IMG/VR virus record: IMGVR_UViG_3300031760_000017
Direction: 5' to 3' (one strand)
Length of the DNA: 29,896 bases
Source: a virus
The notes beneath the pieces were generated by a model. It saw only the letters and a list, made by a program, of their open reading frames with translations, did not search any database and had not been told where the DNA came from. The first letter of the stretch is position 1, and the number at the start of each line of letters is the position of its first letter. The position numbers and the translations under genes were made by a program. Shown one piece after another: positions 9,189 through 29,896 of the stretch.

Positions 9189-9232
9189 GAGGGTAGATGA
9201 TTTAATCATCTACCCTTTTATTTTTATTCATT
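9189..9232. terminator. Bidirectional rho-independent terminator between the convergent early (plus) and morphogenesis (minus) transcription units.
   Basis: Perfect 11-bp stem agggtagatga / tcatctaccct with a 5-nt loop. It is flanked by an A-tract on the left and tttatttttatt on the right. Confidence 0.8.
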
Positions 9233-9781: not shown

Positions 9782-9794
9782 TTTTTATCTCCTT

Positions 9795-11018: not shown

Positions 11019-11049
11019 TTTATATCACCTATATTTATTTTTTAAAAAA

Positions 11050-11078
11050 AATAAGGGGAATATTTATATTCCCCTTAT
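11050..11078 (-). terminator. Rho-independent terminator downstream of the 330-aa structural gene.
   Basis: Minus-strand hairpin aaggggaatat-aaat-attcccctt followed by a T-run. Confidence 0.65.
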
Positions 11079-11098
11079 TAAATTAAAGATTATTGTCA

Positions 11099-12091: not shown

Positions 12092-12146
12092 TTGGATTTC
12101 CTCCTTATATTTTGTACAAAATATTGATTGTCTTTATTTAGTTATT

Positions 12147-12881
12147 TTATTCATGAATATCTTTTAGCCAATCTTCTGGATCATCCATTCCAGAACATCC
12201 TGCGGCTTTAAATCTCTACCAAGAATCATAACGCAGTTTTAATTCAAATCGGTTAAATTCATCCATTAATTGATAAATAGTATAATTCATTAAATCATTT
12301 ATATTTTTTTTCTCGCCAACAGCAAGAATGGAAACATAACGACTTAATATAGCAATTTTAGAATCAGGCGCCAGCTTCGCCTTTTTCTATCTACCTCTTT
12401 TTATCTTATCGGCAATTTTTTGAGCTAACTATCCACTTGGATTATACTATTTATTTTCTTTATTTGTGAGACAAAACATAGTAATAATAATTTCTTTAAA
12501 AGCTTCAAAATTATCTTCATTTATTTCATTAACTTCTCCAGTCTAATTATCACGTAATTGTATTGCCCCTTTTTCCAATAAAATTTCTTTTGTTGGAAAT
12601 AATAATGCAAGAAGAGATAAAACATTTAATTTAGCCTAATAAGCCTATAAATTTTTTTCTTGTATTATCATCATTATTATATTAAAATTTGACATATTTG
12701 ATAAATCAATTTTGTCCTAATCTATTAAATTTTCTTTATTAAATTTTAATATTTCACATCCAGGCCAAAATTGCTTCTAAGTAATGTATGCTATTTCTTT
12801 TAATCGCGGCTGATGAATTGTTAATTGAGCCTAAGGGAAAGGTAAATCATTACCAGATAATAATAATAATTCATCAATCAT
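12147..12881 (-). CDS. Hypothetical protein (about 244 aa) with 11 in-frame TAGs.
   Basis: The ATG overlaps the upstream stop (ATGATTGA). The frame is continuous apart from TAG codons and ends with TAA. Confidence 0.45.
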
Positions 12882-13482
12882 TTTTTGGAATCCATCCATG
12901 CGAACTTGGTAATACATCATCTGTCCCATGGATAGCTGAATATACCATAGTATAACCAGATAAAGTTTCATCTAAAATTAATTCATTGCAACCTGCAAAT
13001 TGAAAGGTGCCTATTCCAGATAAACGTGCTTTGTTAAGAATTCCATCAATATAGCCCGCAATTTTTAAAGGTCTAATTCTAAAATTTCCTAAATCCCAAT
13101 AATCAGTATGACAAAGAATATCAATATTAACATTACAATCTCTAAATTCAGGATTTCTCATATTTGGTCTAAAATTATCAAAACTAATTAATAAATAACT
13201 TTTAACCTATTCATGTTCAGGCATCTTTATTTTAGGCTCAAACTTTATATAACCTTGCTATCTTAATTTAGCTAAACTCATATCTTTAATAGCATTTTGA
13301 TAAACCGTACTTGTTTTATTATCTAAACAATCTTTTGTATTTATTACTAACAATCTTTTTAATTCATCACTATAAGGTTGACTAGTCACAAAAAGTCTTT
13401 TTAAAATTTCTTCTAAGTCTTTCTAGCATGATAAAAAAGATGAAGTAAAATCAACAGGTCTTAAAGCTAAATCTCTCTTCAT
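12874..13482 (-). CDS. Hypothetical protein (about 202 aa) with three in-frame TAGs, a possible neck or tail-completion protein.
   Basis: The RBS aaaaggag precedes it. The track ORF 12874..13161 is its C-terminal 95 aa. Confidence 0.5.
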
Positions 13483-13507
13483 ATATTTTATCTACTCCTT
13501 TTGTCTC

Positions 13508-14488
13508 TTATAAAGATATAATCTTTACATCTAATTTAATATCTTCTTGTCCTTCTACTCTATATATTAAAGTAAAAGACTTAAGTTTTCCTTCTATCTC
13601 TAATGGAAGAATCTTTAAAGAACTATTTAAATCCTTTTCTTCTTCTCCCCATAACAAATACCAATGTCCATTTTCAGCATTACATATCTCATAATATGCT
13701 TTACTATATTGTTGCACTTGAGTGGGACCATTAATATATGCGGCAGTTTCGTCTATAGGATCTTGTTGTCCAGTCTATTGATTTTCTTTAGCAGTTGCTT
13801 CCGCAATAGTATTCTCAAAGAATTCATCTAAAAATACTTGAATTATACCATCACCATAATAAGGATCAACACCTACCACTTGCCAAGTTTTCTCAACGTT
13901 TTTTCTTGGATCTAAAACTTTAATTGTTTTAAATCTTTCAAAATAATTATTTGTGTTTTCATCAGCTGTAATATACATAACTAATGAATAATTTATAGTG
14001 TTCCATTCAATTCCAGACTTTTGTGACCATTCAATAGAAGTTTCAACTGGACCTCTAATATAAACCCAATAACTTTTATCCCCTACTTGAACCTATTGAT
14101 CACATCTGCGGATTTCTGATCTAAAATAAGCATCTTCTTCAAGAAACTCTAAATAAACTAACCAATGTGTATTAGTCTATTTCCAAGTAAAAACGTTTCC
14201 TGGTCTCATATTAATATCAACTTCTCCATCAGAAGTTTTGCCTATTTTTGGCGCATTTAAACATATATCTCTATATGGAATTGAAATAATTTTATTATCA
14301 TAGGCGGGTTTATTTTTATCAGGGTTGATTAAACATCTAAACTATCTTCCATCTTCTAGAACTGCGGTTGCCGCCTGATAAGAATATAATAAAGCTTTTT
14401 TTAAACTTCTTAATTTGTCATTAATAAATCTTTGCTATTGATTCCCGCCATGATATTGCAATCTTTTATTTAATAATTCTAATGACAT
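13508..14488 (-). CDS. Hypothetical protein (about 326 aa) with five in-frame TAGs.
   Basis: The track ORFs 13508..13717 and 13775..13978 are in the same frame, separated only by TAG. Upstream continuity runs to the ATG at about 14488. Confidence 0.55.
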
Positions 14489-14799
14489 ATCTTTTCTTTC
14501 AATTCATTCATTAGTCCTAAACATTCAAAAATAGTTCTACGATAACATAGAAAATCATCCTCTTTAGTTAATGAATAAAGTCCTTCTAATTTATTTAATA
14601 ATGGGAAAAAAATTTCCGAATATTTTTCTCCTATTAGTCTTTTCATACCAATAAGTTCTTCTAAAATTGTTTCTAAAGGTTTTTGCCAATCTAAACCTTC
14701 TTCTCGACTAGGTAAAAGTTTATATGTTTGATTAATAAGGTTTTGCAATCTATTTGAAATTACATTATTCTAAATATTAATGTTATATTTTAATAACAT
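14470..14799 (-). CDS. Hypothetical protein (about 109 aa) with two in-frame TAGs.
   Basis: The track ORF 14479..14748 is its core. The start overlaps the upstream stop (ATAATG). Confidence 0.45.
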
Positions 14800-15338
14800 T
14801 ATTCTTCTCCCATTCTCTTTTTATAATTTTTTTCTTCTAAATTAACAGAAGAAAATTTAACAGGTTGCATAATTTTTCCAAAAGTAGATCGCATGACTCC
14901 CTATTCATCTGGTATTCTTCTTTTATATAAACGTTGTAAATGAAAACCTTCTCTTTCATAATCCTTTTTTAATTGAAGAAGTTTTTGCATATGATTTGCT
15001 TGTGAGGTAAATTTAAAATCTGTTCCGCTATATTTCATTCTAGTATTCTAAACACTAGCTAATTGCTGACTTAACCACTAAACAATCATATACACCGCTA
15101 AAATATTTATCTCTTCACGTGTCAACTCATTGTTAAAACAAAAATATTCTTCACCATTTTCTTCTAATTTTTGATAATCCCATAGATTAATTCTAGGAAA
15201 TTCAAATTTTTCAATAGCAGAAATTAATAATTCCTATAACATTCTATGAGTATCCTATAAAGTTAACTAAAGGTACATATCATCAGTAATTTTTGAAAGA
15301 AAAGAATCATATACTAATGAAAATGGAGTAGTATTCAT
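14799..15338 (-). CDS. Hypothetical protein (about 179 aa) with six in-frame TAGs, a candidate head-tail connector or adaptor.
   Basis: It runs continuously from the ATG (RBS aggggg) to TAA. It lies just downstream of the capsid module. Confidence 0.45.
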
Positions 15339-15354
15339 TTATACACCCCCTAAA

Positions 15355-15924
15355 TTAATTGTTTGGTTTATATCTTCTACCTGTTGGCGCGGCAGTCTGT
15401 TTAATCGGCGTAGCTCTTCTAGTTGTCTGTTTTGTAGCAGAATTTAAAATATTTTCTTCTCCGCTATCAAATTTAGTATTTTTAATTTCAATTGCTTTAC
15501 TAACATCAAATCCAAGTTTTTCTTGAATTGCATTTCTTTTGCTTACATCATTAAGAGGAAGATTAACTGCCATATCTTTAATATTTTCTAAAACGGATTC
15601 TGGAGCAAAATCTAAACAATCTAAAAATTGCTCTAAAGTACCAACTTTCATAAGCTCTTCTATATCTTTATTAGAATAATGATATTCTGGTTCTGGTTCT
15701 TTCCCGAAGAGTATCTTCGCAGCTTCTTCATCTTTAATTTCAAGATATTCACTTAATATAACCTTACCGCCAGGTAAAAAAGAAAGTCTTTCTAATTCAT
15801 TAAAACTTATCTATTTTTGTTCATGCGGATAAAAATCTCTATGAACTCTTAAATCTGGTACATCATATCCAACAGTGCCACCAAATTTATTAACAACTTT
15901 TATCATACTGTTTTTATCTATCAT
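15355..15924 (-). CDS. Hypothetical protein (about 189 aa) with one in-frame TAG.
   Basis: The track ORF 15355..15651 is its C-terminal 98 aa. The N-terminal continuation runs to the ATG at 15924 with a strong RBS aaaaggag. Confidence 0.5.
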
Positions 15925-15961
15925 ATTTTAAAAATCTCCTTTTATCTCCTATATAGTAGAA

Positions 15962-15992
15962 AAAAGGGAGAATTAAAAATTCTCCCTTATTA
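15962..15992 (-). terminator. Rho-independent terminator or attenuator immediately downstream of the major capsid gene.
   Basis: Hairpin gggagaat-ttttaa-ttctccc followed by a T-tract on the minus strand. Confidence 0.7.
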
Positions 15993-16111
15993 TATTTTTT
16001 GCACGTTTAGGCCTATTCCAGACTAATCTATATTAAAAACATCTTCCTCTGGAACACCCCATAAACTTGTGGGGTCATTATTCAATCTTTCCCAAGCTGA
16101 AATAGACCCAA

Positions 16112-17209
16112 TTAGTTTCCCCATGATGGGTCTTGGTCTAGTCCAGGCATAGCCTTAACTAAACTAACATTCTTATATACACAAATACCAGGATTAATCA
16201 TATAAGTAGCAACACCAAGTTTTTGATAAGTCTGGATTTCTGTTGACCAATCGCGGTTTTCAAAAGATTTTACTTGAGCAGCTCCTTCAAAAGCTACTTT
16301 AACAGGTTTCTCTGCTCCAGTAGGAATAATCCAAGCGTATGATGGATCAATTACTTTTTCACTATTAGTTTCATCTGTAAAAGACTGCGGAAGAATAATT
16401 ACTTGATGTCCTTTGTAAGTTCCTAAAGAACCATTATTCCAAATCTGTTCTTTCATTCCATCAGACATCGCATTCCAGTTTAATGAAGCCTGGTTGTTAG
16501 CAATAGTTGTAGGAGCCATTGTTGCAGCAAATTCAAATGTACAATAAATTGTACTCTTACCATAAACGTCTGCTGTCATAAGAAGCTGATCCATTGCCGC
16601 TTCATTAAATCCAGTCTGAGCTGTTTTATTTGTAGCAGGAATATTTAAAACTGTAGCTTCAAGAGCTTTTGCAATTTCACGATAAACTGCTTCATCCATT
16701 CCTTCAAGTACAAGACTATAATAATCATTCATAGTCATACGACCATCAAGAAGTTCTTCCCATTCAATACGAGAAGCGCCTCCATAAGCAGCTGTCGGTA
16801 CTTCAAGTGAATATCCATCAAGCTTGAAGACTTCATATCTACCTGCTAAACCAACTCTTGTTACAAACTGTTTAGCACGTTTCTTAGAAGCTTCACTGAT
16901 TCTTACTTTATAAACAGGTCTTGTTCCTTGCGCGAATGTACGAACATCAGCAAACTGTCCATAATTCTGAAGGACCTTTTGCGGAAGAACTTCTGTAAGA
17001 CCTACTTCAATAAGTGTATAAATAAGATTTTTATTTTCTCTAAAATCTTGAGGAGTCGCCCCAAGTTCGTTTAATTCTTTAATAAAAGTTTTATTCAGAG
17101 CTTCTGCTGAAAGCTTTTCTCCACCAAAAGAAAAAGCAGTAGAAGGATTTAATGATGCTTTCGCATTGGCTCTAGCTAATTCAATAAGCTGATCTCTTGT
17201 TAATGCCAT
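16112..17209 (-). CDS. Major capsid protein (HK97 fold, 365 aa). It is TAG-free.
   Basis: Track ORF with a strong RBS aaggagg. The length and sequence character are typical of phage major capsid protein. It is followed by a terminator and preceded by the scaffold-like and head genes. Confidence 0.8.
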   Translation of the reverse strand: MALTRDQLIELARANAKASLNPSTAFSFGGEKLSAEALNKTFIKELNELGATPQDFRENKNLIYTLIEVGLTEVLPQKVLQNYGQFADVRTFAQGTRPVYKVRISEASKKRAKQFVTRVGLAGRYEVFKLDGYSLEVPTAAYGGASRIEWEELLDGRMTMNDYYSLVLEGMDEAVYREIAKALEATVLNIPATNKTAQTGFNEAAMDQLLMTADVYGKSTIYCTFEFAATMAPTTIANNQASLNWNAMSDGMKEQIWNNGSLGTYKGHQVIILPQSFTDETNSEKVIDPSYAWIIPTGAEKPVKVAFEGAAQVKSFENRDWSTEIQTYQKLGVATYMINPGICVYKNVSLVKAMPGLDQDPSWGN

Positions 17210-17226
17210 TGTCTTTTTCCTCCTTA

Positions 17227-17775
17227 TTACTGAATTCTCTGAAGTTTAACACCAGGGGTTCCATCCGGCATTGTATAATGATCTGTTGCATTATCTTTTA
17301 CGACCTTAAAAATAGGACCATCACCTTCTCCGACAACAAGGAATCCATTTTCACCAACATGAAGTTTCTGTCCTTTGGTCGGGAAAGTTTGTGTAACTGC
17401 TACATTCGGACCTGTACCAGCCGCAAAAGTATTAGTAGTAAAAATATCACCAATATTAGTTTTAATTAAACGAGGATACATTTTTCCATCAGAAAAATCC
17501 TCGGGTTTATATACAAAATCTTTATGACTTTGAAGTCTTTCATCATAAAGTTTTTCTTCATTATAAACAAGCATAAATTCGCCATCTTCAGCAGTAAAAT
17601 TTACTTCACCAGCTGCATAATCATATTTAGCAAACTGACCCTGCTCAAGCTGTGTAATACTAGCAGCTGCAGGTAGTTGTGCATAAATCTGACCAGTTAC
17701 AATACCAGACAGATGATTAGGTTCAACTTGTCCATAACCAATTCTTTTAGTTAAGTCTCTTGCCATTTTTAGCAT
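17227..17775 (-). CDS. Head protein (182 aa, TAG-free), possibly a decoration or scaffold-associated protein.
   Basis: Track ORF with RBS aggagg. It sits between the scaffold-like gene and the capsid gene. Confidence 0.45.
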   Translation of the reverse strand: MLKMARDLTKRIGYGQVEPNHLSGIVTGQIYAQLPAAASITQLEQGQFAKYDYAAGEVNFTAEDGEFMLVYNEEKLYDERLQSHKDFVYKPEDFSDGKMYPRLIKTNIGDIFTTNTFAAGTGPNVAVTQTFPTKGQKLHVGENGFLVVGEGDGPIFKVVKDNATDHYTMPDGTPGVKLQRIQ

Positions 17776-17789
17776 CCTCCTAAAATTAA

Positions 17790-19133
17790 TTAACCAAGTT
17801 TCTCTTGTTCTTTAACAGCTTTCACCCATTCTGGCAGGCTGTCATTTTTATCACTATCTAATGTATATGTGATAGTTTTTTCTTCATTATTTTCTTCTTT
17901 CTCTTTTAAAGAAAAACTAACTTTTTTATCAAAACAAATAACTGAAAGTTTTGCTTTAATTTCTTCTAAAGTGTACTTCTACTTATTACTAATAACATCT
18001 GCTTTATCTTCTTCAGAAAGCATATAGAATTCAGCAATAAGTGCATCCTTTTTCTGATTATCAATTTCTCTTTTAAATTTCACGAGTTCTTGATATTGAT
18101 TTTGAAGAGTCTAATAAGAAGTTTTTAAAGCTTCAAGCTAATTTTCAATTAATTCATATTTTTTTGCTTTTTCCTTATCTTTATCATCATCTTCATCATC
18201 TTTATCTTCATCATCTGATGAATCTTCAGAAGAGTCTTCTTTATCTTCAGTTTCAGATTTGTCTTCTTTATCATCATCTTTTTTTACATAATCAGCAGGA
18301 ACAGAAGCATCTTCCATTTGATCAACCGTAGAAATTGTTGTATCAATTTCTTCTTCAACTTGAGTAAACTCAGTTACAGCAGTATCAGAAGTTTCATTCT
18401 CAACAACCACAGTTTTTTCAAGATTATCCATCTGTTGTCCTCCTCCGTCTAAGGCATTCTTTAAATCTTGCATCATACTAAAAAGTGTATGCCTAAAATT
18501 ATCGTCTAATGTAAATTTCAAACTTACATCTGGAGCCGTTACAGAAGCGCCTTCGAAGCAAGGCTCAACATCGTCTCCTAATATACAAATTTTTTGAATA
18601 ATTGCATCATTTATAATAAAGAAGTCTAATCCATTTTCATAATTTTTTTGCCAATTTCCTTTTAAGGTTTCTGGTTTAAATTCCATTGATTGCGGACGAC
18701 CTTCATTCACAGGTAAGCTGGATTCTGGAAATTGATCAGTCCAAAGATAACCTGTTGTCATAAGATATTTTCTTACAACAGTATTACCCATACCATCGCT
18801 ATCCTAAAAATCTTGAAACCAAACTTTTGCATCAGGAGATACAAAACCATAAGGAACAGTTTGACATTCGAATTTTACTCCTTCATCATCAATAATAACT
18901 TTTTCTCCATGATCTGTAAAATCTTCTTTACTATCTCTATAATAACCTACAATTGGCGCGCCTCGAAGACTTTTCCCAATTTCAACAGCAACCTATTTAG
19001 AAATAAAACTATGGTTTCTATTTGCGCCAAGATAAAATACTTTAATATCACATTTAGACATTAAAGGATTTATATCAAGAGGTTGAAGATTTAAAAATTC
19101 AGGAGAGCTTATCGTTGCAACTGATTGGTGCAT
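17790..19133 (-). CDS. Scaffolding / prohead-protease-like protein (about 447 aa) with five in-frame TAGs. It has a strongly acidic DE/S-rich linker and a coiled-coil C-terminus.
   Basis: The track ORF 18138..18791 is the middle segment. The frame continues upstream to the ATG at 19133 (RBS aaaggag) and downstream through TAGs to TAA at 17790. Its position is between portal and capsid. Confidence 0.55.
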
Positions 19134-19325
19134 AATAAAAATTCTCCTTTTTCATTTCCATATATAATAAAAATTTGAATAATTTTCTTAATAACTTTTG
19201 TCCAAAAAATTTTAATTCATACTTTCACGATTTTGAATTGTTTTTGTCGATTTCTAATCATCTGGTTTTTCAGGTCTTCCCGCACCCTATTTTGAATCTC
19301 CGCCAGTTTTATTACGATTTAAAAC

Positions 19326-20753
19326 CTATGCATTCATAGTACTAGACATTAATGGTGGAATAAAGACGTTAACTAAATCAAGAATATCATTTTCAAAATA
19401 AGCTGTTGCTAAAATAGCGCTTTGAGATTGTCCAAGAGCTATTTGTGGTAACATTTTAGAATAACCTAATTGAGTATGTTCTTTATATTGTTTAGCTAAA
19501 TCTTTATAATTATAAATAGTTGTAGGAAGAATTTGTGCCCTGTAATTAACCTTTTTTGGACTCTTATTATAAGGTATTAATAAAGTATTTAAGAAAGTTT
19601 CAAATTGTTGAATTAAGTTCCACATTGAAGCTTCATCATTTAAAATAGATTTTTCAAGAGCAATATTACCATCAGTATTAAATTGCATTTGTGAAACACC
19701 AGCTTCATTATAAACTGTACGTTCAACTTTTTCTAAATCATCTGTTGTTGTAGTGGTATGATTATCTGCCATATCCGCAACTTCAACATCAGCAAAAGTT
19801 GTTAAAACATCAATTCCAATTGCTTTAGACAACATTTGTACTGCATTATTATGAAGTTGCTGAGCTTCATCTACATCAAATACTAGATCACCATTTTTAT
19901 CAATAGGCATTTTCTGAATAATAATTTTTAATAATTGTTGTTGCATCTTGCGGCGATCAAGGTCTTGAGCTGCATCTAAATCAATTATAGCAGGGATAAC
20001 CGCCATAAATGGTGGAAAATCCTATCCATTTAAATTAAATTTTATAACAGAACCAATAGGAAGTAAATACCATCCAGACTCGTCTCCAGGAAAATCAGGT
20101 TTTAATTTTCCTTGTTTATATAGTCTATATCCTTTTTCAAACTCTTGCGGAAAAATCTTTAACATTCGAAAACGTTGCTCTGAATCTGTGAACATATCAT
20201 CAAAATATTTCATATTAAATTCAACAAGAGGCTGCCCACCTGCCGCAATATATCTGGATCTGCAATATCTTGGCGGCAACTATTGAACTATTACTGTTCC
20301 ATTCTTAGCTATTAAATAACCATAATAACAGCCATTTTTTACAACTTTTAAAGCTACATCACCAAAAAATTTTTTAGCTTCAAATTTATCTAAATAATTT
20401 AAAACTTGATTGAACCCCTCAAGAAGTTTATCTGGTTTCATAGAATCATTATAATATGGTGTTACTAACCAATCATATCTATACATATAAGCCATATAAC
20501 GACATAATCTTTGATAGATACCACTAATCTTATAAAAATAATTAGAAATATCTCTCATCTTATTTAAATCGCCATAATGAATAGCTCTTAAAACCTGCTC
20601 TTTATTTGCTAAATATGGATTAACTCTTTGTAAATCTCCTAGTTTTAAAATTGCATCAGATACAGTTTTTACTCCAACTCGAATTTTTGCAAAATCAACT
20701 GGTATATATCCAGTAGCCTAATTAGGAATTTGGTAATCTTCAGTTCCAATCAT
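19326..20753 (-). CDS. Portal protein (about 475 aa) with three in-frame TAGs.
   Basis: The track ORFs 19326..20006, 20022..20279 and 20280..20558 are collinear in one frame, separated only by TAG. Its size and position immediately after terminase fit a portal. Confidence 0.7.
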
Positions 20754-20815
20754 ATTAAAGCCTTTTTTCTTTATCTATGCCATTCGATTTATCAACTTTA
20801 GATACCTCTCCTTCT

Positions 20816-21178
20816 TTACCACCCATACGCCGCCTTAAGAATATAATCATAATTTACACGTGCCTAATCCCAATAAGGAATAATAACTAATTTAATATCA
20901 TGATCTCGACAATACTATCTTTTTCTCATATCATTATACTGTTGTTTTCTTAATCCATTATAACCACCAAATTTATCTTTAGCTTCATAATGTTGAATTC
21001 CTTGAAATTCAATTAAAAAATCAATATTATGCTAATCATCAAAAACAGCAAAATCAAATCTTAATGGACGTCCGGTATTACTTACTAAATCTGGAAAAGA
21101 GTATTCTTCTACGAACTCTAAACCAGAATCTTGTAATATTTCTTCTATTTTAATTTCTCCTCTGGATGCTCGCATATT
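20816..21178 (-). CDS. Free-standing PD-(D/E)XK (Vsr/DUF559-like) homing-endonuclease-like protein (about 120 aa) with three in-frame TAGs.
   Basis: The motif RFDFAVFDD-TAG-HNIDFLIEFQGIQHY resembles the D...(D/E)...IEYDG.QH core of the Vsr/DUF559 endonuclease family. It is inserted between the terminase and portal genes with its own RBS gaaggag. Confidence 0.55.
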
Positions 21179-21236
21179 TTTTCTCCTTCACTATATTATA
21201 TAAAAAAACCTTTTATAAAATTAATAACTTTCGACC

Positions 21237-22641
21237 TTAATTTTGTGTAAAAAATAAAAAGTCTGATATATTTCTTTTTCTTCTTTTCTTATTTAATTCT
21301 TCTTCATAACGTATATAATAAAGTCCATAAATAAAAGCAGAAAATTTATCTTTTTTAATACCTCTATTACTTTGCTTTAAAATAATATTAACGCCCTAAT
21401 TTTCTTCTACAAGATTTAACATTTGCTATTTTAAAATAGATGTTAAAATAAAAGGACGTAAATATTCATTCCTTTCATCCATATTCATATTTTGTCCTTG
21501 TTTAGTAGACATCAATTTTGTTTTTGCTAAACTTTCATCTATTAAAAATCTAATTTTGCCACTAAACATTTGGGTTTGAGCATAACTATACGCTTCTGTA
21601 TTAATTGGTGCGTTAGCTTTTATTATATATAATATATCACGCTATGTTTCTGGAGTTACAAATTTTTTATATTCTGGATATTCATCTGTATTAAAAACTC
21701 CAAAAGGTGGTAAATACTATCCATCCGCAGTTTCTTGAGCTTTTATTAAATAATCAATTAAACCAACACCTAATCCATTACCGTCAATAGCAATTCGTTT
21801 AGGTTTATACTTATAATATAAGTGTTTTATATGAATACATTGAGTCTCAAAATGCTAAGCATCATAAGTATAAATATTAACAAGAGTCTTATGAGCAGCG
21901 CCTTGCACTTGCGGCGTTACCTTAAAAACACAAATTTCAGTTGTACATCCTATACGCCCAACGTCCACTCCAAATACATAATATGCGGTTTTAGAAGATC
22001 TTCCGCTATACTCATACTATGGTTGCAATAAAACTCGATATTTATCAAACTTCTCAGAAGAAAAGAAAGCATTTTCTACATCTCCTGACCAAATACTCCG
22101 ATATTCTCTATTAAAAGACTAATCATTAAATGTTCCTTGTAATCTTAATTGTTCAACAAAATCTTCATCTAATAATCCAGAAACAACAGGAGTTTCATAA
22201 GTTCCACCCATTATCATATACTAATCTGGATCAAGAATAGAATTAATCAAGATCTATATCAGTTTGTGATATGCGAATGAATTTTTCCATCCTGCGGTGG
22301 TAATATAGATCTGTGACTTATTAACATTTTCTTCCTTGTGGCGGCTGCCATCTGAAAGACGTCTATCAACGTTAGTAGTAGGAATGATAACTTCATTTAA
22401 AATATCCCCATCAATAAGAACACACTATTCCATTAATCCACCTGTTCGACGTTGACCTCTAGAAGATTGTCTTGCCGCAAGAATATCAATAGTTGAGCCA
22501 TTCTTAAAAACGTATTTTACATTGTCTTTTGATTTTGTAGAAACACCTCTGTCCCAATTAATTTCATCATTTAAACCAGGAATAAGTCTACATATCTACT
22601 AGATTTTCGCGACTGTAATCGAGGCTGCTTGCTACTTACCA
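21237..22641 (-). CDS. Terminase large subunit, exon 2 (ATPase remainder plus nuclease domain). It has about 13 in-frame TAGs.
   Basis: It starts GK-TAG-QAASITVAKI (Walker A continuation). It includes FKNGSTIDILAARQSS (compare T4 gp17 LDNGSSIGAYASS). GGLME-TAG-CVLID may be Walker B. The nuclease motifs YYVFGVDVGRIGCTTEICVF and IAIDGNGLGVGLIDYL are present. Confidence 0.8.
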
Positions 22642-23567
22642 CCTGTGGTTACAAACAAATGTGAGTTAGGATATAAAATGCATCTTATCATTAATGCCAT
22701 CATTGACAAAAAAGACTTTGAATAAGCTACTTCTATTTAATATAATTCGTTAAATTATATTCGTATATACGCTCTATGTTCCCATAGAGATTAGACTATA
22801 TCATCATCCTTTAAACTTGGAAGTAAAGGAGCCTACCGCTTCGAGGAAACTTTTCCTCTACTCTCTTTCGAGATAGTCGTTGAACTTTTTATTTATAAGT
22901 AAAAGTTTTTCTTTCCGCTTTACCTAACGGAGTGTCTATATCTTTAGTAAGATAAGTCCAAGTTTCTCTTCTTCTTATTTTAGCTATAAAGCTTCTTACA
23001 GGAAAGCCAGTGATTTTAGAAATTTCTTTATCAGTATATTTATTACTTTTTAATAAATCTATTACCAACTTTGCATCTTTTTCAGTATAATGAGATAGAT
23101 TAGTTTTTTCTCCTTGTAAATATGAGAAATCAGTTAATCCAGTTTTTATGGCGTGGTGTATATTTTCTTGTGAAGTTACCCACTATAAATTATCTAATAC
23201 GTTATTCTCTTTATTACCATCTATATGATTTATTTGTAATTTTTCCATTCCTTCTATCGGTTTTAATAACATCATTAATAATCTATGATATTGAATAGAT
23301 GTTGTCCCCCCGCCTTTTTTCATTAAACTTACTCTCATATAACCATTATGATTTTTATTTATTTTAATATAATTTCCTGTATTGACATTACGAATTTTAC
23401 CCGTGTCATCAATAACATAACAGTCTTTAATATCAGGGTAGAGATCGCTAATTCTCTTCTCCATAAAAATCTCCTTATAAATAACTTAGCTGCTGATAAT
23501 CCGTTCTGGACTTCCCAGCAATTCAATAGGTTTCCTTTGAGAATATTACTATTCTCACCCCGCACTC
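22642..23567 (-). mobile_element. Group I intron in the terminase large subunit gene, just upstream of the Walker A lysine. The junctions are uncertain by a few tens of nt.
   Basis: Exon 1 reads ...FYQRVFLRIVMRHRYVYATFPRR and then breaks. The frame resumes about 0.9 kb downstream at (I)GK. The intron carries an HNH ORF with its own RBS. On the minus strand it has the same R/S-like elements as the polymerase intron: aacgactatc (plus 22872-22878) and gatatagtct (plus 22794-22803). A P9-like hairpin is present. A G precedes the proposed 3' splice site and a U ends exon 1. Confidence 0.7.
22889..23464 (-). CDS. HNH homing endonuclease (HNH_3 type, about 191 aa) inside the terminase intron. It has one in-frame TAG.
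   Basis: NHNGYMRVSL...QYHRLLMMLL...INHIDGNKENNVLDNL-TAG-WVTSQENIHHA matches the H-N-H motif (HxDGNxxNN...NLxW.T..EN). The RBS aaggagat is present. The track ORF 23183..23464 is the N-terminal part up to the TAG. Confidence 0.8.
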
Positions 23568-23818
23568 ATTCTACGGGGGAATGTTGCATATACGTATCTA
23601 TGTCTCATAACTATCCGCAAAAAAACTCTTTGATAAAAAAGAAATTCAAAAGTACTATCTTTACCTTTAATAAAATCAACAAAAATATCTGGATACTATC
23701 TAAAATAAGCAATAAGATCTCTTAATTGATCCATATCTTGTAAAAGTCTTTCTTCTGATATTCCTTGCTTTCGATATTCTCTTTCAGAAGTTATTTGTAG
23801 TAATTCTTTTAACTTCAT
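23568..23818 (-). CDS. Terminase large subunit, exon 1 (N-terminal about 83 aa). It has one in-frame TAG.
   Basis: The ATG overlaps the upstream TGA stop (ATGA). The sequence runs MKLKELLQITSERE...FYQRVFLRIVMRHRYVYATFPRR and leads into the Walker A motif. Confidence 0.7.
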
Positions 23819-25155
23819 GATGTTTGAACCCTCCGATTTAAATATTCTTTTTCAATATCTTCATCATTTAAACTATCATCATGAGCTTTCATATGATTTA
23901 AAGAATTTTTATAATTTACAAAATCCTCATCCTCAAGTTCAACTGTATCTAAACCTTTTGCTCTAGCATCTTTTTTATCTTTTTTCATTTCTTCTGAAAT
24001 CCGCTTATCTTGAAGATATTTTTCAATTTCTTGAGCTAGTGATTTATCTTCATAAATAAGATTTCTATTATATTCTTTTAGATCTCTAATAATCTAATCA
24101 ACTATATCTTGCGGCTAATTACATTTATATCTAGGAATTGAACCACTATGACTCTAAACAAAATCTACAATAGCAGAAGCAGAATCTATACCTATACCAT
24201 TACCATCCTTATTTTGAGCTTCTGTAAATTTTGCAGATTTCATCATAGTATCATAAACACGCGATAATTTTTGATAAGAATCAATATCTCCACTATCAAT
24301 AGCCTAATCCATCTTTAAAGAAGTCTTACAAATTTTCTTTAAAGTATCAATACGCGCCGCACCTTGAATATCAAAAGAATTCATAAATTCATTATATAAC
24401 TGCTCAAGAGCAACCCATTGACTAGGTCTATAAAGACGCCCCCACTTAATTGCAAGATACATTTTATCTTCTTGATCCAAATCCGCACCAGGATCAGTAA
24501 TTTCACTCTAAGGTATAAATAACTGTTCTTGAAATGGATTTTTTACCTGACTTAAAGCTTCAGCATAGGATTGCGGCTATCCATGAACTTCAATTTTATC
24601 TCCAACATGTATACCAGTAATATTGTTTCCCCATTGTTGAGGTAATTCTTTATTTTGAGTCTCAGTACTTACTAAAGTTTGATATTCAGATAATGAAATT
24701 TTTCCTTCACTTAATTTAACTTTAAGCTCAGCTTCATACCTAGCTTTTTCTTCCGCTTCAACCTTTTCTTTTGCGGCTCTCTCTTCATCCATCTATTTTT
24801 GAATTTTTTCAGTATCTTTATAACCATATTTATTCCACTGTTTAAGTTTCATCTTAGCAAGATACTTACCAATAACAGACATTCCATTCATTTTATAAGG
24901 ATCTTTTGCAAAAGCCTTATCTCTTAATACATTCCATTCGACAGGAATATAAGGAACATCCATTTTTTCAAGAATCCATTCAAAAGTATGAGAATCAAAA
25001 TTATCAATATGCGCGGTTATACATGCTTTACAAATTTCGCATTTGCTTCCATCTTTATAACTATAAAAATTTATTTGACCAAATTTCTTTCCGCATCTTT
25101 CACACGTACATTTGCCATTCTAATCTGGCTATTGTCCCATTATTTTCTTTGCCAT
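23815..25155 (-). CDS. Hypothetical protein (about 446 aa) with nine in-frame TAGs. It has an N-terminal CxxC...CxxC zinc ribbon (CTCERCGK...CEICKAC) and a central Glu/Lys-rich coiled coil.
   Basis: It is continuous from the ATG at 25155 (RBS ggagaa) to TGA at 23815. The track ORF 24577..24792 is an internal fragment. It is the second gene of the operon, directly upstream of terminase, so it may be a small-terminase or DNA-recognition analogue. Confidence 0.5.
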
Positions 25156-25198
25156 AAAATTCTCCTTTCTATTATTATAGAAAAAATATTATATAGAA

Positions 25199-26335
25199 TT
25201 AAGTGGTTTTGACCTGTATTTTATTTTTTTTATTTCTACAACATTTGCACATACTATATAAACCATCTTTCGCAGTTTTATTTTTTGTAAAAAAATAGGG
25301 ATGTGCAAGTTTTATTTCATGACACCTAGAGCATCTTTTCCACTTACCTTTTTCTTCAACGGTATAGTGCCAGATTATCCAATCTTCTTTTGCTCTTTCT
25401 GAAATTATTTTTGGGATTTTTTTGCGCCAAACGACAGAGAGGTATTCAATAGAATAAGTAATATTATATTTCTATTTTATTTGCGCGGAAATGTCTTTAT
25501 TTTGTAAACCATCAATTTTATATTTTACAATATCATATAAAATAGGATAATCTTCTTTTAATGATTTATCTATAAGATTATCAAAATCCTCCATTAAAAA
25601 CCACCAATCTCCATCAAAATTTCCCCAAGCCTATTCTTTGATTTTGGAATAATTACATAATAAACAACTTACATGATGAGGGTCAAATAGTGATATTAAA
25701 CAATTGCTTATCGGATTTCCGCTATCATCGACTTTTATTTTTTCACTTAAATTAATTTGATTTACATTCTTAGTTAATTTCATGGAGGTAATAGGAGGTT
25801 TAAATGAGCTTTTTAAGATATATTGATCTTGTCTCATTTCTATTAATTGTTTAGTTAATAGATATTTTTTTCTTCCAGTTGCTACCTTTTGTTGAATTTC
25901 AATTTTCTTTATTTCTTCTCTTAATTCTTTTAATCCTGGTATTGTTTCAATATCGTCTTCAGTAATCTATATTTTTGGAACTAATAGAATATTTTTATCC
26001 CCGCCAGTCATAAAATTATAAATACCATCTTCGCCATTTTCTAATTTTAAAACCAACCCCTAATAAGAAGTTTCTCTCTTATTAACAGTTACCATTCTAT
26101 TGTCTGTTAATACAGTCTTTTCTTTTTTGCTTTCAGGAGTCTCAACTAAATATCTAGTTAATTCTTCTAAATAATATGGAGTCAATTTATCTGCCGCAAC
26201 GCTATTTACAATCTCATGCACTAATCTATTTCGCTATTGTATATCTGTAATTGTATAATCTAGTTTAGCGTAAGGTCTTTTACTATTGTTGTTTTCCAAT
26301 AGAGGAGTATCTTTTATAACATCTTTTTGTTCCAT
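25199..26335 (-). CDS. Hypothetical protein (about 378 aa) with five in-frame TAGs, the first gene of the morphogenesis operon. It has a C-terminal zinc-ribbon-like DNA-binding module (CSRCHEIK...F...DGLYSMCKCC).
   Basis: The RBS aaaggag is 7 nt upstream of the ATG at 26335. The track ORF 25631..25837 is an internal fragment. The frame is continuous to TAA at 25199. Confidence 0.5.
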
Positions 26336-26366
26336 AAATACTCCTTTTTATTAATTCTATACTTAT

Positions 26367-26395
26367 ATTATAGCAAAAAATTTTTTCTCTGTCAA
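26367..26395 (-). promoter_or_regulatory. Consensus sigma-70/sigma-A promoter driving the minus-strand morphogenesis operon.
   Basis: On the minus strand it reads TTGACA, then a 17-nt spacer, then TATAAT. The -35 element is at plus 26390-26395 and the -10 element at plus 26367-26372. It lies about 30 nt upstream of the RBS of the first gene. Confidence 0.7.
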
Positions 26396-26417
26396 TCTAG
26401 AATAAAGGATTATTTTA

Positions 26418-26446
26418 TTGATTTTTAAAAAAATATATTATATAAT
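26418..26446 (+). promoter_or_regulatory. Sigma-70-like promoter for the rightward genes, divergent from the morphogenesis promoter.
   Basis: TTGATT (26418-26423), then a 17-nt spacer, then TATAAT (26441-26446). It is about 30 nt upstream of the ATG at 26476, which has the RBS aaaggag. Confidence 0.6.
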
Positions 26447-26475
26447 AATTATATAATAAAAAGGAGATAATAAAA

Positions 26476-26676
26476 ATGATTACAGAAAAAACTATTAAAA
26501 AGATGAGTAATATTTTTTGTGAAGAAACTGATTGTGATTATTGTCCTTTTACTGAAATGTGCACCCCAATTTGGGAGCTTTCAAAAGACTGGATGAATGA
26601 TGGAACAAGAGCAATATGGAAGAGCGGATTTCAGAAATTTTTTGAAAAGAAACTGGAAGAGGAGCTGGAAGAATGA
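26476..26676 (+). CDS. Hypothetical small protein (66 aa) with a CxxC...C motif.
   Basis: Track ORF with a strong RBS. Its stop overlaps the next start. Confidence 0.5.
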   Translation: MITEKTIKKMSNIFCEETDCDYCPFTEMCTPIWELSKDWMNDGTRAIWKSGFQKFFEKKLEEELEE

Positions 26677-27101
26677 TTTTAGCTGTAACAGGACATCGTC
26701 CGCAACGATTAAAAGGACAAGAGCAATTGATAAAAGAATGGGCGGTCGAGTAGCTTACTCGCCTTCAGCCAGCACTGGTTATTGACGGAATGGCACAGGG
26801 AACTGATCAAATTATAGCAACTGCCGCGAAAGAATTGGGGATTCATGTTCTTTGTTGTTATCCATTTCCTAAGAAATATTATCATCCAGTTGAACAATGG
26901 ATTATGGAAGACAACCCATTTGTCTTTGTTTCTAAAGAATATTCAAAAAAAGCATATTATGTTAGAGACTGTTGGATGGTAGATCATGCAGATGCTCTTT
27001 TATGTGTTTGGGATGGAATAGGTAGCGGAGGAACTTTTTTAACTAGGAATTACGCTCTTAAAAAGAATAAACAAATTATTGATTATAAAGGTTTAAGGTG
27101 A
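26673..27101 (+). CDS. YoqJ/DUF1273-like protein (SLOG-superfamily Rossmann fold, about 142 aa). It has one in-frame TAG.
   Basis: The N-terminal MILAVTGHRPQRL and the IDGMAQGTDQIIATAA motif are characteristic of the DUF1273 (SPbeta YoqJ) family. The ATG overlaps the upstream TGA. The track shows only the fragment 26790..27101 after the TAG. Confidence 0.6.
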
Positions 27102-27106
27102 TAAAA

Positions 27107-27283
27107 ATGAAAGTCAAAGCAAATTATAATATTACCCTTGATGAGGGAAGTTTTATTAAAGGTAAAGAATATAATTATAAAATAACTAATGAAGGAAAAT
27201 ATCTTGTGACAACAGAAGAAGGAATGGAACAGGATTTAAATTTTGCAGAATTTGATATATTCTTTACACCTTTGAAAAATTAA
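27107..27283 (+). CDS. Hypothetical small protein (about 58 aa).
   Basis: Track ORF 27098..27283. The ATG at 27107 has the better RBS (aaggtga). Confidence 0.4.
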   Translation: MKVKANYNITLDEGSFIKGKEYNYKITNEGKYLVTTEEGMEQDLNFAEFDIFFTPLKN

Positions 27284-27348
27284 AAAATTTATAATATAAT
27301 ATACTTGTAAATGATAAATAAATAAAAATATTAAAGATTAAAGAGAAA

Positions 27349-27399
27349 AGGAGGCAGCAGGTATGAGACGGTCATATACCTGCAAAACCGCATGGTAAC
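27349..27399 (+). promoter_or_regulatory. Leader region containing an RBS, an 11-codon uORF (MRRSYTCKTAW) and a hairpin. The uORF stop overlaps the start of the downstream gene (ATGGTAA).
   Basis: The RBS aaggagg is 8 nt before the ATG at 27364. An inverted repeat caggtat..atacctg brackets the uORF start. The TAA of the uORF overlaps the ATG at 27392, which has no RBS of its own. This is a termination-reinitiation or attenuation-like arrangement. Confidence 0.4.
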
Positions 27400-27781
27400 A
27401 ACAGAATTTATTGTAAATGAAGAGAAGCGTACTGTAGTTTGTATTATTACAACAGTAGATGACATGGCAGATAGACTTGCTAAGTATGGTCTTGCGGATG
27501 ACCAGTATGATGACATTGAAGATATTCGTGTTTATAAGGGAATTGCAAAATGCTGCCCGCAGGATACTTGGGATGAGTCTTTTGGAAAGAAGCTTGCCGA
27601 GTGGAGAGCTGCGCGGAAGCGTCAGGTGGATATTAATAATGAAATTTCTGATTATATTGTTAGTATGTATGAAAGACTTGATACACTTGATATTTATGGT
27701 AGACTAAAGAACCCAACCCCGCCTAAGGGATATTGGTATGAAGATCCTGAAGTTGAAGCCGCAAATAAAGGACTAGTGTAA
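27392..27781 (+). CDS. Hypothetical protein (129 aa). It has elevated GC content and is TAG-free.
   Basis: Track ORF. Its codon usage (gcg, ccg, cag, ctg) differs from the rest of the window. Confidence 0.5.
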   Translation: MVTTEFIVNEEKRTVVCIITTVDDMADRLAKYGLADDQYDDIEDIRVYKGIAKCCPQDTWDESFGKKLAEWRAARKRQVDINNEISDYIVSMYERLDTLDIYGRLKNPTPPKGYWYEDPEVEAANKGLV

Positions 27782-28182
27782 TGGAAGAGAGATTAACAAG
27801 AGAAACAGCATTAAATCTTCATAGACAGATGTGGGCAGATATGCTTATAAAATTAGGTAATAACCCTGATGGTCTAGCTCGCACAATGTTTAAGCTGGAT
27901 TGGATTCGAACTCATGGCTATAAGGATGTTGAATGTAATTGTTTTTTGTGCGAATATGATTACCAACAGCGGAGAAGGGGAGACGAGTGGTGTGACTTCT
28001 GTCCAATTGACTGGTCTTCTCTTTCTGCGGGAGAAGAGGATGATTTGCTTTCTCTTCCTGGGGAAGAAGTGGCAAGTTGCGGAGATAGATATATTTATGG
28101 TAACCCTGATTCTTATGAAAGTATATGGAGATCCGCACCAATTAGTGAAATTTTAAATTTACCTGAAAAAGAAGGAGTATAA
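27781..28182 (+). CDS. Cys-rich putative zinc-binding protein (133 aa).
   Basis: Track ORF with motifs CNCFLCEYD, WCDFCPIDW and SCGDRY. Its start overlaps the upstream stop (TAATG). Confidence 0.5.
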   Translation: MEERLTRETALNLHRQMWADMLIKLGNNPDGLARTMFKLDWIRTHGYKDVECNCFLCEYDYQQRRRGDEWCDFCPIDWSSLSAGEEDDLLSLPGEEVASCGDRYIYGNPDSYESIWRSAPISEILNLPEKEGV

Positions 28183-28184
28183 AA

Positions 28185-28511
28185 ATGATTGTAAACCCGT
28201 GGATTTTTTATTTAGCTGGAATATGTGATAATTTAGGATTTGTTGCTATACTTGCTGTTCTTTTTATTTGTATTTATCTGATAATTAGAATAGCGGGTTA
28301 TTACGCTGATGAAATGCCCCATTGGTGGGATAAAAATTTTAAAATTGCGACAATTGTTGGACTTTTACTTTTAGCCCTTGCGGTAGCTATTCCTTCACAG
28401 AACACTTGTTATAAAATGATTATTGCATCACAGGTCACCGCAGAAAATTTGGATAAGGTAGAAGACACTATTGAAAGAATTGCCGATTATGTGGCGGATA
28501 AGGATGAATAA
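28185..28511 (+). CDS. Membrane protein (108 aa) with two predicted TM helices. It is holin-like in size and topology.
   Basis: Track ORF with hydrophobic segments FYLAGICDNLGFVAILAVLFICIYLII and IATIVGLLLLALAVAI, and a charged C-terminus. Confidence 0.5.
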   Translation: MIVNPWIFYLAGICDNLGFVAILAVLFICIYLIIRIAGYYADEMPHWWDKNFKIATIVGLLLLALAVAIPSQNTCYKMIIASQVTAENLDKVEDTIERIADYVADKDE

Positions 28512-28513
28512 AA

Positions 28514-28666
28514 ATGGAGATATTTTTACTGTTACTTTGGATTTTTGTTGGAGCAATTAATATTGCGGGGGCTGCCGCCAATGGCGGGGTAGTTTCTATT
28601 ACTAGTTATATTTGTTGCTGGATTGTGTTAATTGTATTTTTAACTATAAGATGTTTTGATAATTAA
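28514..28666 (+). CDS. Small membrane protein (50 aa).
   Basis: ATG 3 nt after the upstream stop. MEIFLLLLWIFVGAINIAGAAANGGVVSITSYICCWIVLIVFLTI is one or two hydrophobic helices. Confidence 0.4.
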   Translation: MEIFLLLLWIFVGAINIAGAAANGGVVSITSYICCWIVLIVFLTIRCFDN

Positions 28667-28681
28667 GAGGAGTTTTAAAAT

Positions 28682-28843
28682 ATGAATGAAAAAAATGTTG
28701 TAATTAGAGAAGACGAAAAGAATGTTGTTTGGTGTCCGACGTGCGGTGCGGCGTTTTATAAGGATTCCCCCAATTGGGGTAGAGAAACTTGCGGGCATTG
28801 CGGAACGGTGCTGAATTGGGAAAATGTGGAAAAAGAGGATTAA
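28682..28843 (+). CDS. Small zinc-ribbon protein (53 aa).
   Basis: RBS aagaggag. The CPTCG and CGHCG pairs are 20 residues apart. Confidence 0.45.
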   Translation: MNEKNVVIREDEKNVVWCPTCGAAFYKDSPNWGRETCGHCGTVLNWENVEKED

Positions 28844-28846
28844 GTC

Positions 28847-29209
28847 ATGTATTATGGAAATAAAAGTTCACATTGGATAGCGGCGCTGGCTCTGTTTTTT
28901 TACGCTATTTTGATAGTAGGACTTATTGCTTTCTCACTTTGGAGACCTATTGATAAAGTTTCTAATCTACGAGAAGAAACAATTGTAGTTACGGATAAAA
29001 TGGTAAAAGATGACGTTTATTTGATTTATTCGGAAGATACTACGTATGAAATTACTGATAGTTGGCTGTATCCAAGATTTAATTCGTCTGATTTATATGG
29101 AAAAATTCAGGTCGGAGAGAGTTACAAGATAACAGTTGGCGGAAGCAGAATTCCATTTTTGAGTTGGTATCCAAATATATATAGAGCGGATAAGATAAAG
29201 AAGGGATGA
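28847..29209 (+). CDS. Membrane-anchored protein (120 aa) with an N-terminal TM helix and a beta-rich C-terminal domain.
   Basis: Track ORF with hydrophobic segment WIAALALFFYAILIVGLIAFSLW. The stop is TGA. Confidence 0.5.
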   Translation: MYYGNKSSHWIAALALFFYAILIVGLIAFSLWRPIDKVSNLREETIVVTDKMVKDDVYLIYSEDTTYEITDSWLYPRFNSSDLYGKIQVGESYKITVGGSRIPFLSWYPNIYRADKIKKG

Positions 29210-29211
29210 TA

Positions 29212-29246
29212 AGAAGGGATGATAAATCATCCCTTCTTTTTTTGAT
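29212..29246 (+). terminator. Rho-independent terminator ending the rightward operon.
   Basis: Stem gaagggatga / tcatcccttc with loop taaa, followed by tttttttg. Confidence 0.75.
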
Positions 29247-29252
29247 TTGTCG

Positions 29253-29361
29253 TTTTTTGGTTTTGGAGAGGGAAATATCGCTTTTTGGATTTGAAAATTG
29301 ATTTGGAGAGGGAAATGTATGTCCGTTTTTTAGTTTTGAAAATTGATTTGGAGAGGGAAAT
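29253..29361. repeat. Tandem direct repeats. There are three copies of ttggagagggaaat. The last two are embedded in an exact 30-bp repeat tttgaaaattgatttggagagggaaatgt (29287-29316 and 29332-29361).
   Basis: The repeats are read directly from the sequence. The spacers are 17-25 nt. Confidence 0.8.
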
Positions 29362-29599
29362 GTGGAGCACATACCCTTTTATCATTTTTTAAAAAAATTT
29401 TTCCCGAAATATACCCCCCACATAACATTCAGGGAGTGGCGCTAGCTGAGAAAAATGTATGAGCACGCTGGTAGAAAACACGGCCCTAAAAATAGCGCAA
29501 CAAAATAATAGCTGGGGATATGAATAAAGATAACATCAAAGCATTGTCTTCTCATTTGATCTCTTCTCTATTTGAAGTAGATAATTCGTCGTCGCGAGA

Positions 29600-29896
29600 G
29601 CGTCCGCTGGAAAGACGCTTGAGCGACGCTTTTGCACTTTAACGCGTTAAAGCGTTAAAACTTTAGCGCGTTAAAGCGTAACACTGCACCACGTTAAAGT
29701 CCTAAAACTCTGCCACTTCACCGCGCTAAAGTGGTAACGCGTTAATACTTTAACACGGTGAAGTGGTAACGCGTTAATTTCAGCAAGTTGCACAAAAGTC
29801 TATCCAGCTTTTTGTGCAATCTGACGAAAATATTTTTTGTGCAAACCGCACAAAAACGAGCATGAGCTTTTGTGCAAAATGACGAAAATTATTTTT
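29600..29896. repeat. GC-richer region dense in short palindromes and repeats. It includes the perfect 16-bp palindrome ctttaacgcgttaaag (about 29638-29653) and gtggtaacgcgttaat x2. It also includes ttttgtgcaa(a)tgacgaaaat x2, a copy in inverted orientation, and the palindrome ttttgtgc-N5-gcacaaaa.
   Basis: Read directly from the sequence. No ORF is plausible here. It is a candidate origin, terminus or regulator-binding array. Confidence 0.6.

Follow-up and report, generated by a model that had tools for sequence, protein, structure and literature searches.

Near the right end of a phage sequence of 29,896 nt (IMG/VR virus record IMGVR_UViG_3300031760_000017; this whole stretch is hereafter called the window), six small open reading frames (ORFs) follow each other on the plus strand. 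They encode proteins of 129, 133, 108, 50, 53 and 120 amino acids and form one operon, with its own promoter (27272-27300), a conserved leader and an intrinsic terminator (29211-29238). TAG serves as a sense codon in the late genes of this phage and, less often, in its replication genes. The six ORFs contain no in-frame TAG, and they probably constitute the first operon of a large TAG-avoiding domain of early genes that occupies at least 30 kb of the plus strand. An earlier sequence-only reading of positions 27350-29896 had named, as a second possibility, an early region whose expression has to precede the availability of suppression; the evidence favours this proposal, on a deduced timing of expression.

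TAG usage, composition and structure of the operon

The phage is, by its sequence, a GC-poor gut or rumen phage of about 140 kb and a relative of Phass-1 (OQ749652; proposed Phassvirus group) and Enterococcus phage EF1 (Babkin et al. 2023, PMC10607447). Its capsid protein is 52% identical to that of Phass-1 and 34% identical to that of EF1, which places it in the wider group of Babkin et al. DnaE fragments of the same clade occur at more than 300 IMG/VR loci, many of which lie on contigs of 120-180 kb. In the IMG/VR contigs L001 and L003 (140 and 144 kb), the operon is 72-90% identical to that of the window at the nucleotide level. All six ORFs occur there in the same order and are also TAG-free, with ratios of nonsynonymous to synonymous substitution (dN/dS) of 0.03-0.7. 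The conserved order and the purifying selection indicate that the six genes are real.

Read with the bacterial code, the window is poorly coding. When TAG is translated as sense, the summed length of the ORFs of at least 100 codons rises from 17.6 to 30.9 kb (overlapping frames included), and long genes are restored that carry 1-13 in-frame TAGs each, with 13 in the gene for TerL and 7 in the portal gene. A recoded stop codon is used in many genes, which identifies the phage as alternatively coded. The frequency of TAG follows a gradient, from 1.53% of the codons in late genes (82/5355) through 0.53% in replication genes to 0/593 in the six ORFs, which have the sizes given in the earlier reading and terminate with TAA (five) or TGA (one). 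Farther downstream, a single TAG is found among 1535 codons (0.07%). The absence of TAG from the operon has a probability of about 2e-4 under late-gene usage. With the 1535 downstream codons added, the depletion becomes decisive against both gene sets (P = 3e-11 versus late genes and 5e-4 versus replication genes).

The operon also differs in composition. The guanine-plus-cytosine (GC) content is 37.4% in 27350-29896 compared with 29.3% in 1-27349; no sliding window of equal size (2547 nt) over the first 27 kb exceeds 34.5%, and local 200-nt windows range from 0.29 to 0.455. The rise that the sequence-only reading placed at about 27350 is real, but the shift begins farther upstream, at about 26476, as the GC content at third codon positions (GC3) is 0.30 in ORF0a and 0.24 in ORF0b. 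These two genes and ORF0c form a plus-strand unit before the operon (26476-26676, 26673-27101 and 27098-27283, respectively). GC3 amounts to 0.25-0.42 in the six ORFs and to 0.09-0.20 in each of the 29 genes located between 3 and 26335. Despite a high GC content, the capsid gene reaches a GC3 of only 0.18, its excess being confined to codon positions 1 and 2. The previously noted preference for GCG (0.13 in the rest of the window, 0.32 in the operon), CCG (0.11 and 0.20), CTG (0.01 and 0.14) and CAG (0.18 and 0.89) is borne out and extends to AAG, which makes up 0.56 of the Lys codons in the operon and 0.14 elsewhere; the late genes are rich in AAA. The compositional shift is synonymous and goes beyond an amino-acid effect.

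The operon promoter is of the sigma-70 type (TTGAAA-17-TATAAT, 11/12 consensus positions), is invariant in L001 and L003, and is one of only three matches of at least 11/12 on both strands of the window. The 5´ leader (27301-27399, plus strand) is strongly conserved. It contains a Shine-Dalgarno sequence, AAAGGAGG (27349-27356), and a mini-ORF of 11 codons (MRRSYTCKTAW) that extends from an ATG at 27364 to a TAA at 27397-27399. This stop codon overlaps the start of ORF1 (ATGGTAA), and the only good Shine-Dalgarno sequence there belongs to the mini-ORF, whose ATG is enclosed by the hairpin GCAGGTAT/ATACCTGC (-17.9 kcal/mol, z = -2.5). These features suggest a regulated leader with translational coupling. 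Over the 160 nt upstream of ORF1, column identity across the three phages is 96%, compared with 72-90% for coding DNA, and this greater conservation of promoter and leader supports an integrated regulatory unit. At the other end, the strong terminator that had been noted is found on the plus strand as a 12-bp stem followed by a T run, and it is conserved in L001 and L003.

The domain continues beyond the window. The ENA contig L010 matches window 18847-29896 at 99.98% identity and continues for another 9.3 kb to the right; the right end of the window is therefore an assembly break inside a repeat, and the region does not represent a right-end module as had been proposed. A complete circular genome is likewise ruled out for the window, whose left end lies inside the DnaE-type polymerase gene and whose right end continues in L010. 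The extension in L010 contains at least 20 small plus-strand genes (34-209 amino acids, several in paralogous sets) with a pooled GC3 of 0.41. It also contains 13 plus-strand promoters of the form TTGACA-N16-18-TATAAT with at least 11/12 matches, nearly one per gene, whereas the whole 29.9 kb window has only two on this strand, one of which is the operon promoter. In the closest relative, the TAG-poor plus-strand domain goes on for at least 40 kb and holds 21 transfer RNAs (tRNAs), including a CUA suppressor, on the same strand and 33-41 kb downstream. This suppressor gene (L102 16285-16358) lies within the TAG-poor domain, that is, in the part of the genome compatible with the standard code. 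A phage-borne tRNA-Lys(UUU) is present in the close relatives L097/L098; together with the AAA-rich late genes, it supports the split into early and late genes. Apart from tRNA-Lys(UUU), the first 30 kb or so to the right of the operon contains no tRNA. None was found in the window or, across 58 related loci, in the 10 kb upstream of DnaE.

We propose the following sequence of events. At infection, only host machinery would be present, and the host RNA polymerase with sigma-70 or sigma-A would fire near-consensus promoters. Host ribosomes would still read TAG as a stop codon, the phage tRNAs not yet being made, so the early genes would have to be TAG-free, and they would use codons that the host decodes well (higher GC3; CAG, AAG, CTG and GCG). 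The tRNA array with its CUA suppressor would be expressed later, and the TAG-containing genes would then be fully translated.

Several observations weigh against this account. The term early rests on promoter consensus and gene style, and the cause given for the codon bias is likewise a proposal; host-adapted codons are a supposition. Taken alone, the operon is only marginally depleted in TAG relative to the replication genes (P about 0.05). ORF0b, adjacent upstream in the same domain, carries one TAG in the window phage. A perfect sigma-70 promoter precedes the minus-strand gene 25199-26335, which nevertheless contains five TAGs; the type of promoter is thus not cleanly tied to TAG use. Finally, the capsid gene, the gene 11099-12091 and DnaE are TAG-free but not early, which indicates that TAG avoidance has more than one cause.

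The sequence-only reading preferred a moron or accessory cassette, acquired horizontally from a GC-richer donor with the standard code and recently inserted at the genome end. This origin would account for a composition unlike that of late and replication genes, for the scattering of the ORF6 family over unrelated phages and for the lack of homologues of the operon in Phass-1. It can also draw on the more distant, TAG-recoded relative L099/L100, in which ORF0c and ORF1 are kept at the head of the early domain and other small genes replace ORF2-6. Recent insertion is nevertheless unlikely. Relatives that have diverged to 72-90% identity carry the operon in a syntenic position, and neither flanking repeats nor an integrase accompany it; at least 30 kb of neighbouring genes resemble it in composition and TAG avoidance, with a bias that is equal or stronger on the right flank; the supposed genome end is a contig break; and the most conserved part is the promoter and leader, as fits an integrated regulatory unit. 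The earlier reading had proposed to check whether related phages lack the cassette. L001 and L003 possess all six ORFs with the promoter and terminator, and the absence of ORF2-6 from L099/L100, where the late/early contrast in TAG is the same as in the window phage, would fit gene turnover inside an early domain better than one discrete insertion. What stands of the proposal is that ORF2-6 are accessory and that the early domain turns over, as their absence from that relative shows.

Products of the operon

None of the six proteins has a match above threshold in Pfam, NCBIfam or PADLOC, and a nucleotide search of the operon against 50,697 phage records gave no match. The kinds of product noted previously are confirmed, with two transmembrane-like segments in each of ORF3 and ORF4, one in ORF6, and CxxC pairs in ORF2 and ORF5. 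ORF1 (27392-27781) is the most conserved gene of the operon and encodes an acidic protein (net charge -8). Three β-strands and a long helix form a β3-α fold of the dsRBD/HPF type, which may resemble the fold of Acb4 (PF13876; PDB 9e4w; PMC11722364), an anti-CBASS nucleotide sponge built as a tetramer with pockets for cyclic dinucleotides. Any likeness is at the level of the fold only. The fold is generic, Rv1738 scores above Acb4, and neither ORF1 nor any of its 27 homologues matches PF13876 even at E = 10. In addition, the 95-residue chain of Acb4 leaves no room for the 40-residue helix and the C-terminal tail of ORF1. A profile search with ORF1 against PDB sequences returned chance matches only.

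ORF2 (27781-28182) encodes a very acidic (net charge -12), fast-evolving protein (dN/dS 0.29-0.44). The alignment of its homologues contains an invariant zinc-type motif, C54-x2-C57 ... C71-x2-C74 (CxxC-x13-CxxC). The homology search that had been suggested for this Cys-rich protein identified no Pfam, PHROG or NCBIfam family. The second zinc ribbon, ORF5 (28682-28843; CPTCG ... CGHCG; GC3 0.415), is under strong purifying selection (dN/dS 0.03-0.10), and its matches to zinc-ribbon families are below threshold.

The remaining three products are membrane proteins. ORF3 (28185-28511) has two transmembrane segments and an acidic C-terminal helix; it matches phrog_3878 (E = 2.6e-12), a family without assigned function, and its match to DUF7442 is below threshold. 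ORF4 (28514-28666) has two transmembrane segments as well. ORF6 (28847-29209) comprises an N-terminal transmembrane anchor and an oligonucleotide/oligosaccharide-binding (OB) fold domain, and it matches phrog_301, a family of secreted proteins that is widespread in phages (E = 1e-17). DUF1523 (PF07509) is recognized on two remote homologues of ORF6, whereas ORF6 itself is below every Pfam threshold; DUF1523/phrog_301 and ORF6 have a common layout, with an N-terminal anchor followed by a β-domain of about 85 residues.

Two transmembrane segments with a charged C-terminus in ORF3, two in ORF4 and the anchor of ORF6 are also the features that favour a lysis module, one of the roles suggested earlier. 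In such a module, ORF3 would act as a holin resembling class II, ORF4 would be a peptide of the antiholin or spanin type and ORF6 would be an accessory protein anchored in the membrane. Weak matches to holin families point in the same direction but are far below threshold (E 0.09-0.5), and no endolysin gene is located in or beside the operon. The promoter is of early type and the genes are TAG-free, whereas lysis genes are preferentially recoded in the published pattern, as given by Borges et al. (bioRxiv 10.1101/2021.08.26.457843). The lack of ORF3-6 in L099/L100 is unexpected for essential lysis genes and shows them to be dispensable in that relative. A lysis module is thus highly improbable.

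Early proteins that are small and acidic, and early membrane proteins, typically act in anti-defence, host takeover and superinfection exclusion. The operon encodes two very acidic soluble proteins along with two zinc ribbons and three membrane proteins, and it might therefore serve host takeover or anti-defence and act on the envelope, for example in superinfection exclusion, although we regard this assignment as tentative. A toxin-like role, which had also been suggested, is a further possibility. The small conserved early proteins, among them two zinc ribbons, an OB fold with a membrane anchor and a fold that may be Acb4-like, are candidates for anti-defence or exclusion.

Meaning of TAG in the clade

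In the clade of the window phage, TAG appears to encode glutamate (Glu) rather than the usual glutamine (Gln). The comparison covered the in-frame TAGs of window 9224-26335 and 1040-8969 and of the related loci L001, L003, L014-L093 and L102-L119. When the late genes were aligned with those of two close relatives, TAG was present in one or more genomes at 67 codon sites, of which 49 were variable; the alternatives were GAA or GAG at 36 sites, CAA or CAG at five and GAT at three. Among the partners of GAA, TAG is second after GAG, whereas among those of CAA it is as rare as GAA. Of the 377 residues aligned with TAG in more distant relatives, 122 are Glu, 54 Lys and 25 Gln; these alignments are phylogenetically non-independent. 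The Glu assignment has a log-likelihood of -1000, compared with -1121 for Lys and -1219 for Gln, an advantage of 219 units for Glu over Gln. The amber-to-Gln code (table 15) predicts that TAG positions correspond to Gln in relatives and homologues, and this is not observed. In the control, TAG sites of Phass-1 correspond in the window phage to Gln at five of 18 sites and to Glu at one, in agreement with the published Gln assignment for Phass-1; conversely, TAG sites of the window phage correspond in Phass-1 to Glu at 12 of 56 sites and to Gln at three.

The tRNAs provide suggestive evidence in the same direction, with modest identities. Unlike tRNA-Gln, the CUA tRNAs of the clade have no U1-A72 pair. 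At four related loci, the suppressor gene comes immediately after those for tRNA-Glu(UUC) and tRNA-Glu(CUC), and the suppressor has the same four-base variable loop and D-arm sequence as tRNA-Glu. The CUA tRNA of the closest relatives has C1-G72, G2.U71, A73 and a D-loop in common with tRNA-Glu(CUC), to which it is 65% identical compared with 43% to tRNA-Gln. A single anticodon change, from CUC to CUA, would make such a suppressor from tRNA-Glu(CUC). Conversely, the suppressor of Phass-1 starts with UGGGG and has G73, like tRNA-Gln. Members of the clade also possess other unusual RNA genes, namely a UUA-anticodon tRNA (ochre suppressor; L112 16446-16520), a UCA-anticodon tRNA called as selenocysteine tRNA (L052 20488-20582), three tRNAs called with a four-base AUCA anticodon (L114 13780-13854, L115 15785-15859 and L116 14906-14980) and phage-borne transfer-messenger RNAs (L119 16757-17034 and L009 9507-9836).

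Taken together, these results lead us to lean, with moderate confidence, towards a joint account, in which TAG would be read as Glu in this clade by a phage CUA suppressor derived from or shaped like tRNA-Glu, the TAG-free early domain would act as a boot sector in the standard code, and the assignment would have diverged in the Phass-1 lineage, where TAG is Gln. The literature searched yielded no account of a phage or bacterium in which amber is read as Glu, which is no proof of novelty. A possible code of this kind is a more interesting result than the operon itself. If it is true, one stop codon took different meanings in related phages, and pipelines that use table 15 mistranslate about 1.5% of the late-protein residues in a widespread rumen and gut phage clade.

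The assignment also bears on whether amino-acid content or chance could have produced the composition of the operon and its lack of TAG, which would then be devoid of regulatory meaning: the operon has only nine Gln codons, so that under TAG=Gln the probability of finding no TAG is 0.05-0.24, and TAG is likewise missing from late genes of high GC content, for example the capsid gene, but this explanation is largely refuted and has very little left in its favour, since the shift lies in third positions within synonymous families (GC3 0.28 versus 0.15-0.17, about 8 standard errors), 43 Glu codons lack TAG under the better-supported TAG=Glu (P = 2e-4 versus late genes), only one TAG occurs among 141 Glu-type codons once the downstream genes are added (P = 3e-11), and the pattern recurs in three other phages.

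Genome context and comparison with known systems

The window is divided into three blocks. The plus-strand block of replication and nucleotide metabolism (3-8969) encodes a kinase, glutaredoxin, NrdD, NrdG, dUTPase and the DnaE-type polymerase, whose gene is broken into 3-704 and 1702-4356 by a GIY-YIG homing-endonuclease gene (1040-1684). The structural block (9224-26335) lies on the minus strand and includes the portal gene, the capsid gene (16112-17209) and TerL. A second homing-endonuclease gene, of the HNH type (22889-23464), lies beside TerL within an insertion (22728-23572) that L001 and L003 lack, their flanking sequences being contiguous. TAG is absent from three late genes that are presumably highly expressed, namely the capsid gene, its neighbour (17227-17775) and a 330-residue gene (11099-12091) whose Phass-1 homologue is located in the structural block of that phage. 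The capsid gene and its neighbour favour CAG over CAA, unlike the remaining late genes, and the capsid gene of relatives has TAG at a position where the window phage has GAA.

The early-type block of plus-strand genes extends from 26476 to the window end. It is separated from the late block by a divergent promoter region (26367-26446), which consists of a minus-strand promoter that matches the consensus at 12/12 positions with an extended TG (TTGACA-17-TATAAT, 26395-26367) and a plus-strand promoter (TTGATT-17-TATAAT, 26418-26446). The former drives the gene 25199-26335, which encodes 378 residues and is a candidate for transcription by the host polymerase with translation delayed until suppression. 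At the very start of the early domain, ORF0b encodes 142 residues with the N-terminus MILAVTGHRP... and has a weak SLOG/ShosA-like match (PADLOC ShosA, E = 6e-4); its single TAG corresponds to Gln in the relative L008.

Outside the operon, positions 29240-29896, which had been included in the proposed module, are a non-coding, repeat-rich spacer in which the window ends. This part represents the initial 0.66 kb of a spacer of 1.2 kb, of which four further copies lie downstream. It contains three copies of TTTGGAGAGGGAAAT (29262, 29302 and 29347), an array of short TAACGCGTTAA-type repeats and palindromes (29626-29776) and three copies of TTTTGTGCAA (29809-29888). The corresponding spacers in L010 (10364-11574, 12483-13161, 14010-14781 and 15615-16232) are also non-coding, measure 0.6-1.2 kb and follow one another through the early domain at intervals of about 1.6 kb; they consist of short degenerate repeats and palindromes (TAACGCGTTAA, CACTTCAYCAC, GTGTTAACAC) with TTTTGTGCAA and TTGCACAAAA motifs. 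They might serve as binding arrays for proteins, as an origin or in regulation. The Rfam search assigned no family to the spacer repeats or to any other part of the window or L010, and thus no tRNA or riboswitch in leader or spacers. Four perfect consensus sigma-70 promoters on the minus strand of L010 (17316, 18024, 18707 and 19585) are antisense between early genes; antisense transcripts, small RNAs or mini-ORFs of the minus strand may be expressed from them.

Among known phages, Phass-1 and EF1 resemble the window phage in genome size, the DnaE-type polymerase, NrdD/NrdG, YonG_N/YonD_N-type proteins and TAG recoding, and they share with its clade a large tRNA set with CUA suppressors. Phass-1 differs in its GC content (44.5% versus 29%), its gene order, the lack of a homologue of any ORF of the operon, a tRNA-Gln-like suppressor and TAG sites that align with Gln.

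The host-takeover module of SPO1 and the early genes of T4 and T5 are characterized by dense, strong host-type promoters, each followed by one to a few very small ORFs. These ORFs have no assigned function, many of their products are acidic or membrane-associated, and they turn over rapidly, which resembles the domain of the operon. No sequence homology was detected between these early clusters and the operon of the window, for which the timing is deduced.

The pattern also matches the model published for alternatively coded phages (Borges et al., bioRxiv 10.1101/2021.08.26.457843). According to the passages of that preprint cited here, the structural genes of such phages are TAG-rich and a gene block that includes the suppressor tRNA region is TAG-free, as in the window phage, and the proposed role is temporal control of translation. 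The clade of about 140 kb is not among the clades named in those passages, and the window phage differs further in that its early domain has a distinct synonymous usage (GC3 0.28-0.41 versus 0.15-0.17 outside the domain) and in that TAG is apparently read as Glu, not Gln. That first-expressed genes are kept readable in the code of the host is an arrangement known for recoded phages, and the operon is one more case. It is a clear case in which synonymous usage, besides the use of a stop codon, separates early from late genes, and such a codon contrast can be used to delimit early regions in the genomes of uncultured phages.

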